This document shows positions 42,931-48,950 of a stretch of 64,000 nucleotides of DNA, piece by piece. This DNA is from an uncultured Methanoregulaceae archaeon (GTDB lineage: Archaea; Halobacteriota; Methanomicrobia; Methanomicrobiales; Methanospirillaceae): positions 832,001 to 896,000 of the forward strand of contig CAWJAX010000003.1 of NCBI GenBank assembly GCA_963841015.1, given 5' to 3'. Within the stretch, counting starts at the first letter, position 1. The number at the start of each line of letters is the position of its first letter. The translations under genes were made by a program, and so were the position numbers. Below the pieces are notes generated by a model. That model worked only from the letters and a program-made list of their open reading frames with translations, was not told the origin of the DNA and did no database searches.

Positions 42931-43569
42931 TTAGGTTTTCAGTGTTGCTTTGCTCTCGGAGATTCGCTTTCTGAGTTCCTGTGCAGCTGCGGTAATATCC
43001 TTACTACCGACCACAGAAGAGATCACCGCCACACCGTCTGCTCCTGCTGTGATAACCTCATGTACATTGTCCAGGTTTATCCCCCCTATGGCAATTACCG
43101 GAACAGAAACTTTCTGCCGTATTTCCCGTAAAACCCTAAGACCGCGACCAGGTCCTGCATCATTTTTCGATGCCGTGGAAAATATTGGGCTTACAGCAAG
43201 GTAATCTGCACCATCCTGTTCTGCCTTTAAGGCTTCATCAACAGTTCCCACAGAGACCCCGATAATAAAACCAGGCGGGGCAATCTGCCGGGCAACGCCA
43301 GCACGTATGTCATCCTGCCCGAGATGAACACCATCTGCTCCGCAGGCAAGGGCTGCATCAAGACGATCATTGACAATGAACAATGTACCGGTTTTCATCG
43401 TTATGGTGCGGAGAACCCTGCCGATCTGACAGAGCTTCAGGCACCCGCACGTCTTGTCTCTTAACTGAATGGCATCTGCTCCCCCGGCAATTGCCCGCTC
43501 TGCAATCTCTGCGTGGGTTAAACCACCGGCAATTGTCTCATCGGTAATGACATACAGGGCGTACTTCAT
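42931..43569 (-). CDS. thiE: Thiamine-phosphate synthase
   Basis: LYVITD, QLRDK, IVNDR.D.A, DGVHLGQDD, GADY, T.SK, AIGGI motifs. Confidence 0.95.
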   Translation of the reverse strand: MKYALYVITDETIAGGLTHAEIAERAIAGGADAIQLRDKTCGCLKLCQIGRVLRTITMKTGTLFIVNDRLDAALACGADGVHLGQDDIRAGVARQIAPPGFIIGVSVGTVDEALKAEQDGADYLAVSPIFSTASKNDAGPGRGLRVLREIRQKVSVPVIAIGGINLDNVHEVITAGADGVAVISSVVGSKDITAAAQELRKRISESKATLKT

Positions 43570-43579
43570 GATACCATGA

Positions 43580-44380
43580 TTATCGTGTCCTTATCCTTGC
43601 ACCAGATATCAGATCTTCAGGTTTTAATGCTGCCATCTCATCAAATAGTGCAGTCTTGAACGAATACGGACCCCTTGCACCGGCAGCTGCTCTCTCACCG
43701 GCTAAGCCGAATGCCGCCAGTGCTGCTGCCGATGAAATGACAGGACTGTCAGCTGCTGCAGAAAATGCCCCAATGACGGATGCTGCCATGCAACCAGTAC
43801 CGGAAATACTGCCCAGCATCGGATGGCCATTTTCCACAAGAAGATGGCTTTTGCCATCAGTCACGATGTCCGTTGCACCGCTTACGACTACTGTCAAACC
43901 AGCTTCTTTTGCATAGTGTTGTGCAATCCTAAACAAATCACCAGTCACACCACAAGAGTCAACCCCTCTCACGTGTGCTTCTGCACCGGCAAGGATACCT
44001 ATCTCCCCGGCATTACCCTTGAGGATCGTTATCTTCAGTTCATCGAGCAGCCTCTGTGCACTTTCGGTCCTGAACCGGGTCGCACCGGCTCCTACAGGAT
44101 CAAGAATAATCGGGACCCGCCGATCGTTTGCCATGCCCCCGGCAAGCAGCATTGACTCTATCTGTCCCATGTTGAGTGTACCGATATTGAGGACAAGTGC
44201 ACCGGCAAAGGTAACCATTTCACAAACCTCCTCCGGGGCATCCGCCATAACCGGGGCAGCACCGGCAGAGATCGTGATATTGGCACAGTCATTGACCGTG
44301 ACATAATTGGTAATATGATGGACAAGCGGGCGCTTCTCCCGCACACTGGCGAACACCTCAGAGATTTGTGTATTTTTCAT
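43580..44380 (-). CDS. thiM: Hydroxyethylthiazole kinase
   Basis: [42 protein letters not shown] motifs. Confidence 0.95.
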
Positions 44381-44520: not shown

Positions 44521-47153
44521 TCATCGTGTGAGTTCTTCCAGCGTCGCCAGGAGCATATCGATTTCATGATCCGTGTTGTAAAGTGCAAGGCTCGCCCGCA
44601 CCGTCCCTTCGGGTAATTTGAGATAGTCAGTCAGCGGCTGGCAGCAGTGGTGTCCGGATCGCACCATGATATCCGCAGTCTCATCAAGCTGCTGGGAAAC
44701 TTCATGCGGGTGCATGCCATCAACGGTGAATGAGACCACCCCAATTCCTGGGACGGGATGAGAAGGAGCAAAGACATGAACGTGTTTGATCTGTGCCAGC
44801 CCGTCAATCAACCGATTCGTAAGCCCTTCTTCGTAGTTTCGTATCTTTTCCATGCCGACTTTCTGGAGATATTCAGCAGCAACGCCAAGACCGATCCCCC
44901 CGGCTATATTGGGGGTGCCGGCTTCGTATTTCTGGAAACCTTCTGCGGTTTTGAAACCTGTGGCGGTTACCGTCTCGACCATCCCGCCGCCGAATATCGA
45001 AGGCTCAAGCACAGGTTCCTTCATCCAGAGTACTCCTGTTCCGGTAGGCCCGAGCATCTTGTGACCCGAAAAGGCAAAAAAGTCACAGCCCAGACGAGCA
45101 ACATTTACCGGCAGGTGAGGTACTGACTGGGCGCCATCAACCAGCAGGAGGATGCCTTTTTCGTGGCAGATCTCTGCAATCTCTGGAACAGGAGTAACCA
45201 CGCCGATAACGTTCGATGCATGACTGATCGTGATAAGCCGGTGGCCGGGGTGATCGCCCGTTTCAGTGCATCAAGATCAAGCGAGTAGTCAGCGTTTATA
45301 CCGACGACATCGAGGCTTACTCCCCACCTGGTGAGATTTCTCCACGGCAGCAGGTTTGAGTGATGCTCAAGAATTGTGGTGATCACACGGTCCCCGGTTT
45401 TCCAGACAAGCCCCTGCGCAACCATGTTGATTGCTTCAGTGGTATTTTTGGTAAAAACCGTGACTCCATCGTTACCGCCAATAAACTGTGCGACTTTGTC
45501 GTGGGCATGCCAGTAACGCTGTGAGGAGATCCGGGTGAAACGGTGAACACCCCGCCCCACATTTGCCCGGTAACGGTGTTCAAACTCGACCATCGCTTCA
45601 ATAACAGGCTCCGGAGAAAAGCTTGTTGCTGCATTGTCGAGATAAATGATGTCACCGAGAATCGGGAAATCCTTGCGGATCTCGTTAACCGCAAATCCCG
45701 CACCAGACTGTTTTTCGATTGTTGGTTCCATGGTTGTTCCTTCCTTCATATCAACGGATTCCTTCTTTCTCATGGGGACGGTCTGCAGCGTATAATCATC
45801 ATTGACATTAATCCCCTTCGATTTACACAATTCCCTCATTTTCGGGGGCAATGCCCGCCAGCGCCAGAGCCCCCACGAGCAAAAAGACTCCGGAAACCCT
45901 TTTTTATCAGCCCATGTATCGAGGAATGCATCCCACCGCTTCGCATACTCAGGATGGATGATCCGGAGTTCCTCATACTCACTTTCAAGCATCGCGGGGC
46001 AAAGGTAGCATCCGATTCGTTCGAGTCCTTTATCGTAAAGCGGGTTAATTTCCGCTTTCTGCCACCATAAATAGAGGAATACTTCAAGCGCCCGCCAGTT
46101 CCTGATCGGTGAGACGTTCAGCTGGAGGGGGTTGGCCGGATTCTGGCTCGTCTCATCAAGGTCAGCCCGGTTCCAGGATTCGTACCAGCGGTTTCCCTGT
46201 ATCGTAACGCACGGCCCAACCCCGGCAAGGTAGAGCTTGAGCGGGTGTAGTTTCAGAAGTTTGCAGCACCAGCGGTTATCCTTTCCCGGAGGTCCAGCCT
46301 TCTCTACGGCCTGCCAGAAGTCCCCCGCTTTCTGGACGACCTCGACACCCTGGGATCGCACAAACTCCACTGTTTCGGGAAATTCGATACCGGTGTCAAT
46401 AAAGAATGCTTTTGTTACACCGGCTTTCCGTGCAAGATGCAGGATTGCAGTACTGTCCTTACCTCCTGAGAAGGAAACATTTGCAGTCGGACGGTCATGG
46501 ATATGGTGTTTAATGCTGCGGATGGCATTGCGCTCCAGGTTCTTTAAATGGTACCGGTTCTTTTCGATTGCTACATCCCAGCCGGGATTTGGCGGTGTGC
46601 GGAAAGCGACGGCAATGAGCTCTCTGACTTTGACCGAGCCCTCTTTGACCATGCCAGTCCCGAACCGGTTTTTATATTTCACAATCACCGTACCCTCAGG
46701 TGCAGGAATTTTGAGGGGAATCCTTTTGCCACCGATCCGTCCCTGCTCTTTTCTGGCATCGGTCTGGAGATCAAGATCCACTATCCCCTGCTTCACGAAA
46801 GACAGGATATACGGGAGTGCTTCCGGCGCGAGATCGAAACTGAACTGTCTCGATACCGGATCGAACGTGAGCCAGCCAAACCGTTCCCCGTGCATTATCA
46901 CCAGATCCGCACGATCAACACCGCCGGTTTTGTTCAGGAGAAGAATTTTTGCAAGAGGAACAGTGCCAAAACGTTCATGGACGAGTTTTTTGATGAGTGC
47001 TGCATCCGCTGCAAGTGCAGGGCGGACATCGTAAGGCTGGAGAAGCTCGATCTTTTTCCCCTCGTTACCACACGCACAGCTCTTTGCAATCAGCGGGACA
47101 TTGCAGGTCTCGCACCAGTAAAGTATCTTTTTTACCGGCGGTTCGCGTAACAC
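44521..47153 (-). CDS. Fusion of PAPS-reductase-family [4Fe-4S] domain and SufS-type cysteine desulfurase (one frameshift near 45241)
   Basis: SFSGGKDS, DTG.EFPET, RWCC, GNR.YES, PI..W, NPLY..G..RIGCYLCP continue in frame to YLDNAATS and EHHSNLLPW; after the shift come DGAQS, SGHKMLGPTG and RSGHHC. Confidence 0.88.
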
Positions 47154-47322: not shown

Positions 47323-47727
47323 ATGGTGAAATTAACCGCAGAGATGAAGGAGGCTTTCGGGAAGATGAAGGTGTTCCCGGTTGCCACGGCGACAAAAGAG
47401 GGAACTCCGAATGTAATCCCTCTCGGGATTGCATGGCTCATGAGTGATGATACCGTCTGGTTTGTGGACAATTTCATGAACAAGACGCTTTCCAACCTAA
47501 GGGTTAACCCCAGGATCGCGTTCTATCTCTGGGGACCCGAGATCAAGGGCTGTTACCAGGTCAAAGGTGTAGCGGAAATCAAAGCCAGCGGCAGGGAATA
47601 CGATGAAATGAAGGCAAAGATCAATGAGAAGAACCCGGCTCTCCCGGCGCGCTCTCTGGTCATCGTTAAGATAACCGAGATCTTTGAGTGCAAACCCGGA
47701 CCTACAGCCGGGGCTAAAATTCTCTGA
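47323..47727 (+). CDS. Pyridoxamine 5'-phosphate oxidase-like flavin-binding protein
   Basis: ATA...G.PNV, DNFM.KT..NL..NP, YQ.KG, PG..AG motifs. Confidence 0.85.
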   Translation: MVKLTAEMKEAFGKMKVFPVATATKEGTPNVIPLGIAWLMSDDTVWFVDNFMNKTLSNLRVNPRIAFYLWGPEIKGCYQVKGVAEIKASGREYDEMKAKINEKNPALPARSLVIVKITEIFECKPGPTAGAKIL

Positions 47728-48178: not shown

Positions 48179-48950
48179 TTATTTTGCACGGTAATTTTTG
48201 ATCATCAGCGTACCTTTCCCACGGTTGGCTATATCGCCTTTGAACACATCTGCGGTAATCTTCCATTCAGGGAGCATTTTTCTTTCAGTTTTTTCAAATG
48301 TGGGAATCATATCATGGACTGTCCCAAGAATCACGCATGAACCATCCTTCATGTTAGCACAGGGACGGGTTGCTTCACCTTCGATAATCAGCTCTCCGCC
48401 ACGCATCTCCACACCAGGGAAATCTCCGGCACTCCCATGAATATGCACCCTGCCACCTGCAAGGTATTCAGCACAGAAATCACCCGCATTGCCAAACACC
48501 TCCACGCTCCCACCCTGCATACCTTTTTTCTCACCACGGTAACCGGTCGCGCAATAATGGCCGGCATTGCCACGGCAGAGAATCGTCCCGCCACGCATCT
48601 CGCGCCCGAGCCAGGCATCCGCATTTCCAAGGATCTCGATCGTCCCCCCGCTCATGAAATTCCCGCAATGCATACCGATATCCCCGCTGATCAGGATACT
48701 GCCGGTATCCATGTATTCCCCTACCCGCTTGATTCTTGATGTGTCACCTTTGAGAACAACCTCGATATTTTCCGGGGAAACTGCAGTGCCTTCAACAAAG
48801 ATCCAGAACAGTTCGGAAAGCGTGCGTTCCTTATTACCCTCATATACCAGAAGATCCTGTACCTTTCAGGAAATTGCGGGGAATGATTGCTTCTGCTTCT
48901 ATGGGGAGGGTGGGCTTTTTACGCACCTTGCTCTCAAGGATCACCCTCAT
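48179..48950 (-). CDS. fmdC: Formylmethanofuran dehydrogenase subunit C (frameshift near 48857)
   Basis: PIEAE.I.P, YEGN...LSELF, KRVGEYM, GXGXXG beta-helix repeats, GD....GKG. Confidence 0.9.

Follow-up and report, generated by a model that had tools for sequence, protein, structure and literature searches.

Enzymes such as CysD, DndC, ThiI, TtuA and LarE, which split ATP at the α–β phosphate bond and so adenylate a substrate, are recognised by a canonical PP-loop; in the CysH enzymes this loop has been lost. In the eukaryotic molybdenum cofactor (Moco) sulfurase (ABA3/MOCOS), a NifS-like domain is fused to an acceptor domain (MOSC). A survey of Methanomicrobiales found SufS in 30 of 32 genomes and SufE in 0 of 32 (PMC8351635), and the words ‘fused’ and ‘PAPS’ are absent from its main text. 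Herein we describe a gene that joins a PP-loop enzyme and a SufS-type cysteine desulfurase in one chain. It lies on the minus strand of a 64,000-nucleotide stretch of DNA (the window) from an uncultured Methanoregulaceae archaeon (assembly GCA_963841015.1, contig CAWJAX010000003.1, positions 832,001 to 896,000), at 44521..47153. We establish its domain make-up, the conservation of its motifs, the distribution of the fusion and its origin in a single event, the gene's non-membership in the DndC and CysH families, and the presence of intact copies in near-identical strains.

The reading that we favour, with a probability of roughly 55%, is that the fusion may be a self-contained ATP-dependent sulfur-insertion (thiolation) enzyme that carries its own sulfur donor. 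An earlier reading of the same DNA (the preliminary description) had suggested that the protein adenylates a substrate and inserts cysteine-derived sulfur, and this is still the best reading, with which the architecture, the canonical PP-loop and the conserved fusion all agree.

Architecture of the fusion protein

In the assembly the gene is read as two open reading frames (ORFs), ORF1 of 682 amino acids (45105..47153) and ORF2 of 226 amino acids (44521..45201). Pfam places PAPS_reduct (PF01507; PAPS, 3′-phosphoadenosine 5′-phosphosulfate) at ORF1 residues 225-387 (E = 3.7e-36, 125.2 bits against a gathering score of 22.5). Aminotran_5 (PF00266, E = 1.9e-72) extends over both frames, with profile positions 1-142 at ORF1 residues 503-640 and positions 155-371 in ORF2. 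As the end of ORF1 and ORF2 share this one profile, they are a single class V enzyme cut in two, and the best NCBIfam model for both C-terminal pieces is sufS (TIGR01979). The N-terminal 450 residues match NF010366 (PRK13795.1-1) with E = 1.5e-120 over profile positions 36-516 of 667; the 403.3 bits of this match do not reach the cut-off of 745 bits, which is set for the full length with its ferredoxin end. The order of domains is thus Zn ribbon, PUA-derived domain, PP-loop domain of the PAPS-reductase fold with a CC...CxxC cysteine set, disordered linker and SufS-type cysteine desulfurase, as follows (residues are those of ORF1; PLP, pyridoxal 5′-phosphate; pLDDT, predicted local distance difference test).

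44521..47153, minus strand: whole gene, about 877 codons allowing for the missing base, read as two ORFs in the assembly
47070..47117, minus strand: Zn-ribbon cysteines C14, C17, C26 and C28, from conservation; metal binding is presumed
46584..47066, minus strand: pre-PUA and PUA-derived domain, residues ~30-190, beta-rich and degenerate in the Methanomicrobiales clade
45816..46580, minus strand: PP-loop/PAPS-reductase-fold catalytic domain, residues ~192-446, from Pfam PF01507 and Foldseek
46452..46475, minus strand: canonical PP-loop SFSGGKDS, residues 227-234, from alignment and conservation
46263..46268, minus strand: Cys296-Cys297 of RWCCK, presumed [4Fe-4S] ligands, from conservation and alignment to 2goy
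45999..46010, minus strand: Cys382-x-x-Cys385 (GCYLCP), presumed [4Fe-4S] ligands, invariant and aligned to 2goy
45684..45815, minus strand: charged disordered linker, residues ~447-490, from model pLDDT, orthologue variation and composition
45242..45683, minus strand: SufS domain, first part (Aminotran_5 positions 1-142), from Pfam and NCBIfam
45239..45242, minus strand: one-base loss, plus-strand GG against GGG in relatives, from comparison with locus L023 and contigs of runs X1 and X3
44521..45240, minus strand: SufS domain, second part (positions 155-371), from Pfam and NCBIfam
45058-45060 and 44641-44646, minus strand: codon of the PLP lysine of SGHK, and the persulfide cysteine of HHCC, both within the second part of the SufS domain

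The preliminary description had read the gene as coding for one chain in which a SufS-type desulfurase is joined to a PAPS-reductase-fold protein of the PP-loop/[4Fe-4S] type, and Pfam, NCBIfam and the intact relatives bear this out. The motifs that it named (W-C-x-x-C...C-x-C, SFSGGKDS, RWCC, GCYLC, SGHK and RSGHHC(C)) were all located, and the ECG[LI]H tail that it had reported as missing is indeed absent from ORF1, from ORF2 and from the intact orthologue P0001.

The AlphaFold2 model of the N-terminal 470 residues of the window protein has a mean pLDDT of 93.7 and a predicted template modelling score (pTM) of 0.93. In the model of a full-length orthologue the mean pLDDT is 87.4, falling below 50 at linker residues 467-486, and the linker differs between orthologues in both sequence and length. 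Prediction of a complex between the PP-loop half and the SufS half gave a score of 0.00, which is uninformative either way.

The PP-loop domain and its presumed cluster cysteines

Across 115 family sequences the S-G-G-x-x-S of the PP-loop is invariant, as are C296 and the pair Cys382/Cys385, and C297 is conserved in at least 90%; S-G-G-K-D-S, R-W-C-C-K and G-C-x-x-C-P as a whole vary little or not at all. The PP-loop, RWCCK and GCxxCP are retained in 52/52 long forms. When aligned pairwise with the adenosine 5′-phosphosulfate (APS) reductase 2goy, the CC and CxxC pairs fall on the cluster cysteines of that enzyme, and SFSGGKDS stands opposite its degenerate SFSGAEDV; the CC...CxxC cysteines presumably bind a [4Fe-4S] cluster. 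A Foldseek search with the N-terminal model gave APS/PAPS reductases as the top matches of the catalytic domain (4bwv, 6vpu and 2goy; E ~1e-9, 22-25% identity over ~200 columns), with CysD and the PAPS domain of FAD synthase also among the matches and TtuA lower at 8e-7.

The closest solved folds and sequences are therefore those of APS/PAPS reductases, and this, together with cluster cysteines placed as in 2goy, is what speaks for an archaeal-type assimilatory or sulfite-producing (P)APS reductase. Weak APS reductase activity has also been cited for the M. jannaschii ‘Apr homolog’ MJ_0973 (PMC3448663), a possible member of the PRK13795-type family. Against this reading, which we regard as very unlikely, the window protein has no ECG[LI]H tail and its PP-loop is of the canonical ATP type. 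The scores of the CysH and APS reductase models amount to between one quarter and two fifths of the respective cut-offs (TIGR00434, 38.6 against 165.1 bits; TIGR02055, 55.5 against 235.3; NF002537, 60.2 against 154). The 94%-complete genome gave no match to ATP sulfurylase (PF01747; CysDN was not separately sought), and its matches to APS kinase cover just 42-52 of 152 profile positions, the length of a P-loop, at 21-23 bits. Moreover, fusing an enzyme that sets free reduced sulfur from cysteine would make no sense for sulfate reduction. On the tail, the PP-loop, the model scores and the lack of an ATP sulfurylase match, a CysH-type (P)APS reductase was rejected.

We also considered a thiolase of the TtuA/TtcA/NcsA type. 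For the corresponding Pfam model, ATP_bind_3 (PF01171), the orthologue P0001 is unlisted at E <=10 and the relative L035, at 17.6 bits, falls short of the cut-off of 27. A PF01171 thiolase was rejected on this model.

The fused SufS domain

The C-terminal domain of the orthologue shares 38-45% identity with solved SufS enzymes, with target-normalised template modelling scores (TM-scores) of 0.81-0.85 in Foldseek. Its best model is sufS TIGR01979, at 430.6 bits just below the 475.1 cut-off, whereas the DndA model TIGR03235 gives 140.9 bits against a cut-off of 480. Among 51 long Methanomicrobiales forms, rows that include duplicate loci of single genomes, both the PLP lysine and the persulfide cysteine are present in 48. 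No SufS-type gene other than the fusion was found in the window's genome. A profile search of that genome gave no match to SufE, and its sole IscU/NifU gene adjoins NifS on another contig.

A PAPS-reductase-family protein and a cysteine desulfurase are the two enzyme classes that also operate in DNA-backbone sulfuration, as described in the literature (PMC12707154, PMC12839542), and the preliminary description had labelled the fusion ‘DndC+DndA-like’. That label did not hold. When the genome was searched with the DndC model TIGR03183 (cut-off 290.4 bits), the fusion gene was not matched at E <=0.001, and only the paralogue described below was, at 40.8 bits. PADLOC matches to DndC were marginal (5e-5, with 0 passing stretches). 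No match to DndD (TIGR03185) was found in the genome; DndE was not searched, and neither dndD nor dndE is among the recurrent neighbours. With PADLOC the best match of the PP-loop half is BrxP (4.4e-35), and the SspA and DndA models match the SufS half, which might favour a DndC+DndA, SspD+SspA or BrxP-type role in a defence or epigenetic system. No partners of a defence type recur among the neighbours, however, the SufS half is of the SufS rather than the DndA/IscS type by its model scores, and inheritance is vertical and order-wide, with a paralogue in 41/41 genomes, which is the pattern of a housekeeping gene and not of a mobile defence island. Such a role for the fusion is most improbable.

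The N-terminal region

The Zn-ribbon cysteines are at least 90% conserved in the 115 family sequences and invariant in 40 N-terminal sequences. Between residues ~30 and 190 the window protein gave no match to Pfam, PUA (PF01472) included, even at E <=10. A profile built from the 40 family N-termini, in contrast, matches PUA proteins: 3d79 (PH0734) at 2.1e-6, 1q7h at 2.2e-5, the archaeosine tRNA-guanine transglycosylase ArcTGT (1iq8) at 8.5e-4 over both the pre-PUA and PUA parts, Cbf5 (2apo) at 1.7e-3, an archaeal PUA-containing nucleolar protein homologue (5zvd) at 4.9e-3 and Nip7 at 0.02.

The AlphaFold2 model is confident here, with pLDDT above 90 across the PUA-derived domain except around residue 135. 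The matches listed by Foldseek for the N-terminal model span ~200-320 columns and lie mostly in the catalytic domain, leaving the fold of residues 1-190 unassigned by structure. A protein atlas search with the N-terminal 215 residues returned the same family only, at scores of 0.76-0.78. For the RNA target proposed in the preliminary description, the family profile that matches RNA-binding PUA proteins offers some support.

Distribution and origin of the fusion

The fused frame is open, at 877-967 amino acids without a stop, in 20/20 of the relatives' best places listed with loci, so the junction is no chance read-through. The orthologue P0001 (locus L004) is intact at 880 amino acids and 87% identical over ORF1 residues 1-641. 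We sampled 300 genomes of the phylum together with the window's genome, and all 60 other Methanomicrobiales genomes among them hold a homologue. In 36 of these the match runs into the SufS part within a frame of 876-1082 amino acids; in 3 the frame is 912-966 amino acids, with the listed match ending at residue 463-482; and in 21 it is 448-548 amino acids and lacks SufS.

In a word-indexed search of 5.8 billion proteins, 730 matched the junction region at E <=1e-10, and all of the best 120 of these carry both PF01507 and PF00266. Where names are given, they are ‘aminotransferase class V-fold PLP-dependent enzyme’ (Methanoregula, Methanoculleus bourgensis) or ‘cysteine desulfurase/selenocysteine lyase’. 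On named contigs the fusion occurs in Methanoregula, Methanoculleus, Methanolinea, Methanosphaerula, Methanospirillum, Methanocorpusculum and Methanocalculaceae, and it spans at least seven genera. Cultured members of these include Methanoculleus bourgensis, Methanospirillum hungatei and Methanosphaerula subterraneus, which opens the enzyme to expression and assay.

The N-terminal part is far more widespread. With the N-terminal 470 residues as query, HMMER against 1.84 billion representatives gave 278 clusters (50% identity) at E <=1e-30. The best 150 of these are mostly 560-700 amino acids long and include one full-length SufS fusion, P0121 (933 amino acids). Relatives of 600-700 amino acids, 33-44% identical, come from Methanosarcinales, Methanotrichaceae, Methanoperedens, Methanomassiliicoccales, other Thermoplasmata, Asgard archaea and Thermoproteota. 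Outside Methanomicrobiales they carry a conserved S-P-C-x-A-G-G-Y-S stretch and a two-cluster (Fer4) ferredoxin in place of SufS. A Cys + Fer4 module at the place where SufS stands fits a module that supplies sulfur or electrons. The middle domain of a ferredoxin-type relative had no usable match in the protein atlas, and a search with the ferredoxin-type homologue for fused relatives of much greater length (1125-3210 amino acids) gave none, a weak negative as this length range was poorly chosen. Proteins of the PRK13795 type are labelled only ‘hypothetical’ or ‘PAPS reductase family’. A supply of coenzyme M or sulfite was dropped as a role, the family being common in non-methanogens.

The N-terminal part of 102 rows was used to build a maximum-likelihood tree (LG+G4 with quick search), with the paralogue as root. 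Methanomicrobiales form one clade of 55 rows with a Shimodaira–Hasegawa-like approximate likelihood ratio (SH-aLRT) of 100 and a stem branch of 0.77. Four short forms are basal in it, and the 51 remaining rows make up a SufS-fused clade (SH-aLRT 99) that includes the secondarily short L032 and L033, plus L055. Long branches join near the root, and the deep branching order is unsure. By this tree the fusion is a Methanomicrobiales-specific variant inside the large archaeal PRK13795-type family, and the most economical history would be loss of the Cys + ferredoxin end followed by a single capture of SufS.

Two further family members may be mentioned. The paralogue, found in all 41 genomes of the relatives search, has 470 amino acids and is ~36% identical; in the window's genome (L002, G000:C3:458738-460096) it consists of a Zn ribbon, a Pfam PUA domain (2e-15) and PAPS_reduct, and is equally uncharacterised. 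P0224 (733 amino acids) has an end resembling the C-terminus of EF-1A/EF-Tu instead of a ferredoxin, which is either a real fusion or a gene-calling artefact.

Proposed function

We infer the [4Fe-4S] cluster, the adenylation, the hand-over of sulfur between domains and the substrate from homology and architecture. In the proposed mechanism, the C-terminal SufS domain would remove sulfur from L-cysteine by means of PLP, its HHC(C) loop would keep this sulfur in persulfide form, and the PP-loop domain would adenylate a substrate oxygen with ATP. The [4Fe-4S] cluster on CC...CxxC would then receive or relay the sulfur, which would displace AMP, with the Zn ribbon and the PUA-derived domain holding the substrate. 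This thiolation reading is supported by the lack of any rival acceptor for SufS among the genes found (SufE was not found and the sole IscU/NifU stands beside NifS) and by recurrent links to desulfurases, since an unfused PP-loop gene (L033) lies beside a NifS-like gene, and LarE and an NcsA-like gene lie with NifS and FdhD. As to the class of substrate, the PUA ancestry, the Zn ribbon and a distribution like that of a housekeeping gene would make RNA (tRNA or rRNA) the likeliest, with a nucleotide-like cofactor next.

Several observations weigh against a thiolation enzyme of this kind. The PUA region of the Methanomicrobiales clade is too degenerate for Pfam, and the profile matches to PUA proteins of known structure rest on the whole family rather than on this clade. 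In L028, L050 and L055 both the PLP lysine and the catalytic cysteine are lost and the SufS domain is retained, and the fused domain therefore cannot itself donate sulfur there. All four cluster cysteines are kept, as in APS reductase, whereas thiolases of the TtuA type have three-Cys cluster sites. Nothing observed pointed to a specific substrate. As ThiI and NcsA/TtuA-like proteins, which are known tRNA thiolases, are already encoded in the genome, there is no obvious orphan thionucleoside. The weak APS reductase activity cited for MJ_0973 would also count against thiolation if that protein belongs to the family.

More speculatively, the Zn-ribbon/PUA/PP-loop/[4Fe-4S] family as a whole could be a new class of RNA sulfur-insertion enzymes found throughout the archaea, thio-modifying a base or even the backbone, into which SufS was captured in Methanomicrobiales; we hold this to be possible, at clearly less than even odds. 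If true, a single polypeptide would move sulfur from free cysteine into RNA, and a thio-modification whose enzyme has so far been unassigned could be involved.

That a cysteine desulfurase is naturally fused here, and the fusion conserved, serves as a Rosetta-stone clue, turning ‘PAPS reductase-like’ into the testable claim of a sulfur-insertion enzyme that accepts persulfide sulfur. It suggests that the task of the widespread family is the insertion of sulfur into a target, probably RNA, and not the reduction of sulfate. The protein is already in public databases under generic names, such as class V aminotransferase; as a presumed PP-loop/Fe-S sulfur transferase with its desulfurase fused on, it is of value for what it hints about the function of a large and unstudied family of archaea. 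No paper on a PAPS-reductase/PUA/cysteine desulfurase architecture was found in a literature search whose coverage excluded subscription journals and supplements. The fusion also bears on sulfur trafficking in methanogens: the survey cited above has type II methanogens with SufS but without SufE (PMC8351635), and the fused domain is thus a candidate for the missing acceptor.

The frame break near 45241

The frame shifts within ...AITPAT|RLITISHASN..., as seen in the three-frame translation and the DNA. It had been claimed beforehand that the break is confined to the SufS part and leaves the fusion junction intact, and the split of Aminotran_5 and the view of the frames agree. The window has GG at 45241, where the nearest species, L023, has GGG in an intact gene whose protein is 95% identical. 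Contigs of four public runs (X1, X3, X9 and X15) were compared. In X1, and likewise in X3, which come from two different studies, the sole covering contig has an extra G behind 45239; X9 and X15 give no cover at this position. Contigs of the RNA library X15 overlap the gene in parts, and such contigs alone are not evidence of transcription.

Other genes in the window show similar breaks. Between 48713 and 50661, single-base insertions relative to L023 occur at 48858 (fwdC), 49980 (fwdA) and 50661; fwdC lacks the first 77 profile positions, and fwdA is split at profile positions 223/231 into ORFs of 235 and 337 amino acids. Formylmethanofuran dehydrogenase is central to methanogenesis. As fwdA and fwdC are also broken by one-base indels, an assembly with scattered one-base errors is the simplest explanation. 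The break at ~45241 is most likely an assembly error and the gene, for this reason, is probably functional; a strain-specific pseudogene, the alternative, is distinctly unlikely given this comparison.

Gene neighbourhood

Eighty-six loci were gene-called, 37 of them from Methanomicrobiales, and the four neighbours on each side were clustered. FdhD (PF02634) is a neighbour at 10/37 Methanomicrobiales loci, in Methanoculleus, Methanolinea, Methanospirillum, Methanosphaerula and others, and in both orientations. The standalone SufS genes of the order have FdhD after them and a divergent NifS-like gene before them (L119, L121, L122); the genome of L028 additionally holds one of these SufS-FdhD pairs (L121). 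FdhD seems to travel with SufS, and the fusion probably arose in a row of PP-loop gene, SufS and FdhD. In E. coli, a cysteine desulfurase provides the sulfur that FdhD uses for the formate dehydrogenase Mo/W cofactor.

The two halves could instead be largely independent, the fusion being a by-product of gene order in which SufS serves as the general type II desulfurase of the cell, for Fe-S assembly and for FdhD in sulfurating the Mo/W-bis-pterin cofactor of formate and formylmethanofuran dehydrogenases, and the PP-loop part is unrelated. The standalone pairs favour this, as do the several genera and both orientations in which FdhD adjoins the fusion, the lack of any other SufS-type gene in the window's genome, and the position of the fusion ~1 kb from fwdCAB in the window. 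We nevertheless consider it unlikely. The fusion has been retained in at least seven genera from a single origin, the unfused PP-loop gene L033 also pairs with a NifS-like gene, head-to-head, and the module that is replaced in other archaea is likewise one of Cys and Fe-S. Catalytically dead SufS domains are, moreover, still kept on the PP-loop protein, which argues for physical coupling. SufS enzymes are dimers, and a dead domain might recruit an active partner, which would be in keeping with a requirement for such coupling.

A cluster of sulfur genes occurs on another contig of the same genome as the window (L128, G000 contig C4, 38000-52000), where NifU/IscU, NifS, LarE, FdhD and an NcsA/TtuA-like PP-loop gene adjoin; the NifS there scores 618.9 bits, above its cut-off. 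In this genome it is thus a local habit for genes of PP-loop sulfur transferases to lie with that of a desulfurase. The neighbours that recur beside the ferredoxin-type relatives differ from lineage to lineage and are mutually unrelated (an AI-2E transporter, an FAD oxidase, a GltD-like oxidoreductase, arginine decarboxylase, an M50 peptidase and threonyl-tRNA synthetase), and those of the paralogue (hisH, a regulator and an antiporter subunit) are uninformative. Divergent from the fusion, at 47323-47727 on the plus strand, lies a small gene resembling PPOX-class, F420-type oxidoreductases, which stands in the same place in L004 and L023.

Downstream of the fusion are two thiamine genes:

43580..44380, minus strand: thiM, same strand as the fusion
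42931..43569, minus strand: thiE, same strand as the fusion

The preliminary description had pointed to this context. Both genes do follow on the same strand, but they are not a general clue, as thiM is a neighbour at 12/37 Methanomicrobiales loci, of which 9 are Methanoregula, with thiM directly downstream on the same strand, and the other three (L045, L048, L061) have it in other positions; thiE is a neighbour at 7/37. That the fusion supplies sulfur for the thiamine thiazole, at least in Methanoregula, would draw support from the thiM-thiE pair behind it at these nine loci and from the scarcity of thiazole synthases: Thi4 was found in 1/8 sampled Methanoregula and not in the window's genome, and ThiG in 0/13 Methanoregula genomes. 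We judge this role highly improbable. Most fusion-bearing genera have Thi4 (74/101 genomes of the order, e.g. 15/19 in genus g5), thiM-thiE without a thiazole synthase fits salvage, and many archaea of the wider family have no thi genes among their recurrent neighbours. ThiM is a salvage kinase, and salvage most simply explains why most Methanoregula lack both known thiazole synthases and have thiM-thiE behind the fusion. The alternative for these genomes is a route to the thiazole other than the known ones.

Comparison with known systems

With the CysH enzymes (2goy, 7lhr, 4bwv) the fusion shares the fold (Foldseek E ~1e-9) and the positions of the CC...CxxC cysteines. It differs from them in its canonical ATP-type PP-loop, its extra N-terminal domains and its lack of the ECG[LI]H tail, and sulfate-activation genes were not found in its genome. 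DndC, SspD and BrxP, with DndA or SspA, offer the precedent of a PAPS-reductase-fold PP-loop protein that works with a cysteine desulfurase. The protein described here, in contrast, is a fusion with a PUA-type N-terminus in place of the parts specific to DndC or BrxP and with a housekeeping distribution, in a genome where DndD was not found.

The thiolases TtuA, TtcA and NcsA, together with LarE, are PP-loop sulfur transferases of the [4Fe-4S] or the sacrificial kind; they offer a parallel to the proposed chemistry, in which the substrate would be adenylated before sulfur is inserted, and to the layout of a Zn finger with a PP-loop. The window protein belongs to PF01507 and not to PF01171, has four cluster cysteines where the TtuA/TtcA/NcsA enzymes have three, and has its donor fused on where those use a thiocarboxylated carrier. 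ABA3/MOCOS likewise has a desulfurase fused to a sulfur-using domain, and the FdhD neighbour provides a link to Mo/W cofactor sulfuration; there, however, the acceptor is MOSC rather than a PP-loop enzyme and the order of domains is reversed.

The desulfurase half resembles the SufS enzymes of known structure from E. coli, B. subtilis and T. onnurineus in its PLP lysine (SGHK), its HHC persulfide loop (RSGHHCC) and its fold, and departs from them in being fused behind another enzyme, in scoring below the model cut-off and in having no SufE found in its genome. The window gene branches among the PRK13795-type proteins (NCBIfam NF010366-NF010369; Zn ribbon, PUA, PAPS_reduct and ferredoxin). Over the N-terminal 450 residues they are 36-44% identical to it, and the residues of the Zn ribbon, the PP-loop and the CC...CxxC set are the same. 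Where these relatives end in a Cys domain and a 2x[4Fe-4S] ferredoxin, the window protein, with its degenerate PUA region, carries SufS instead.

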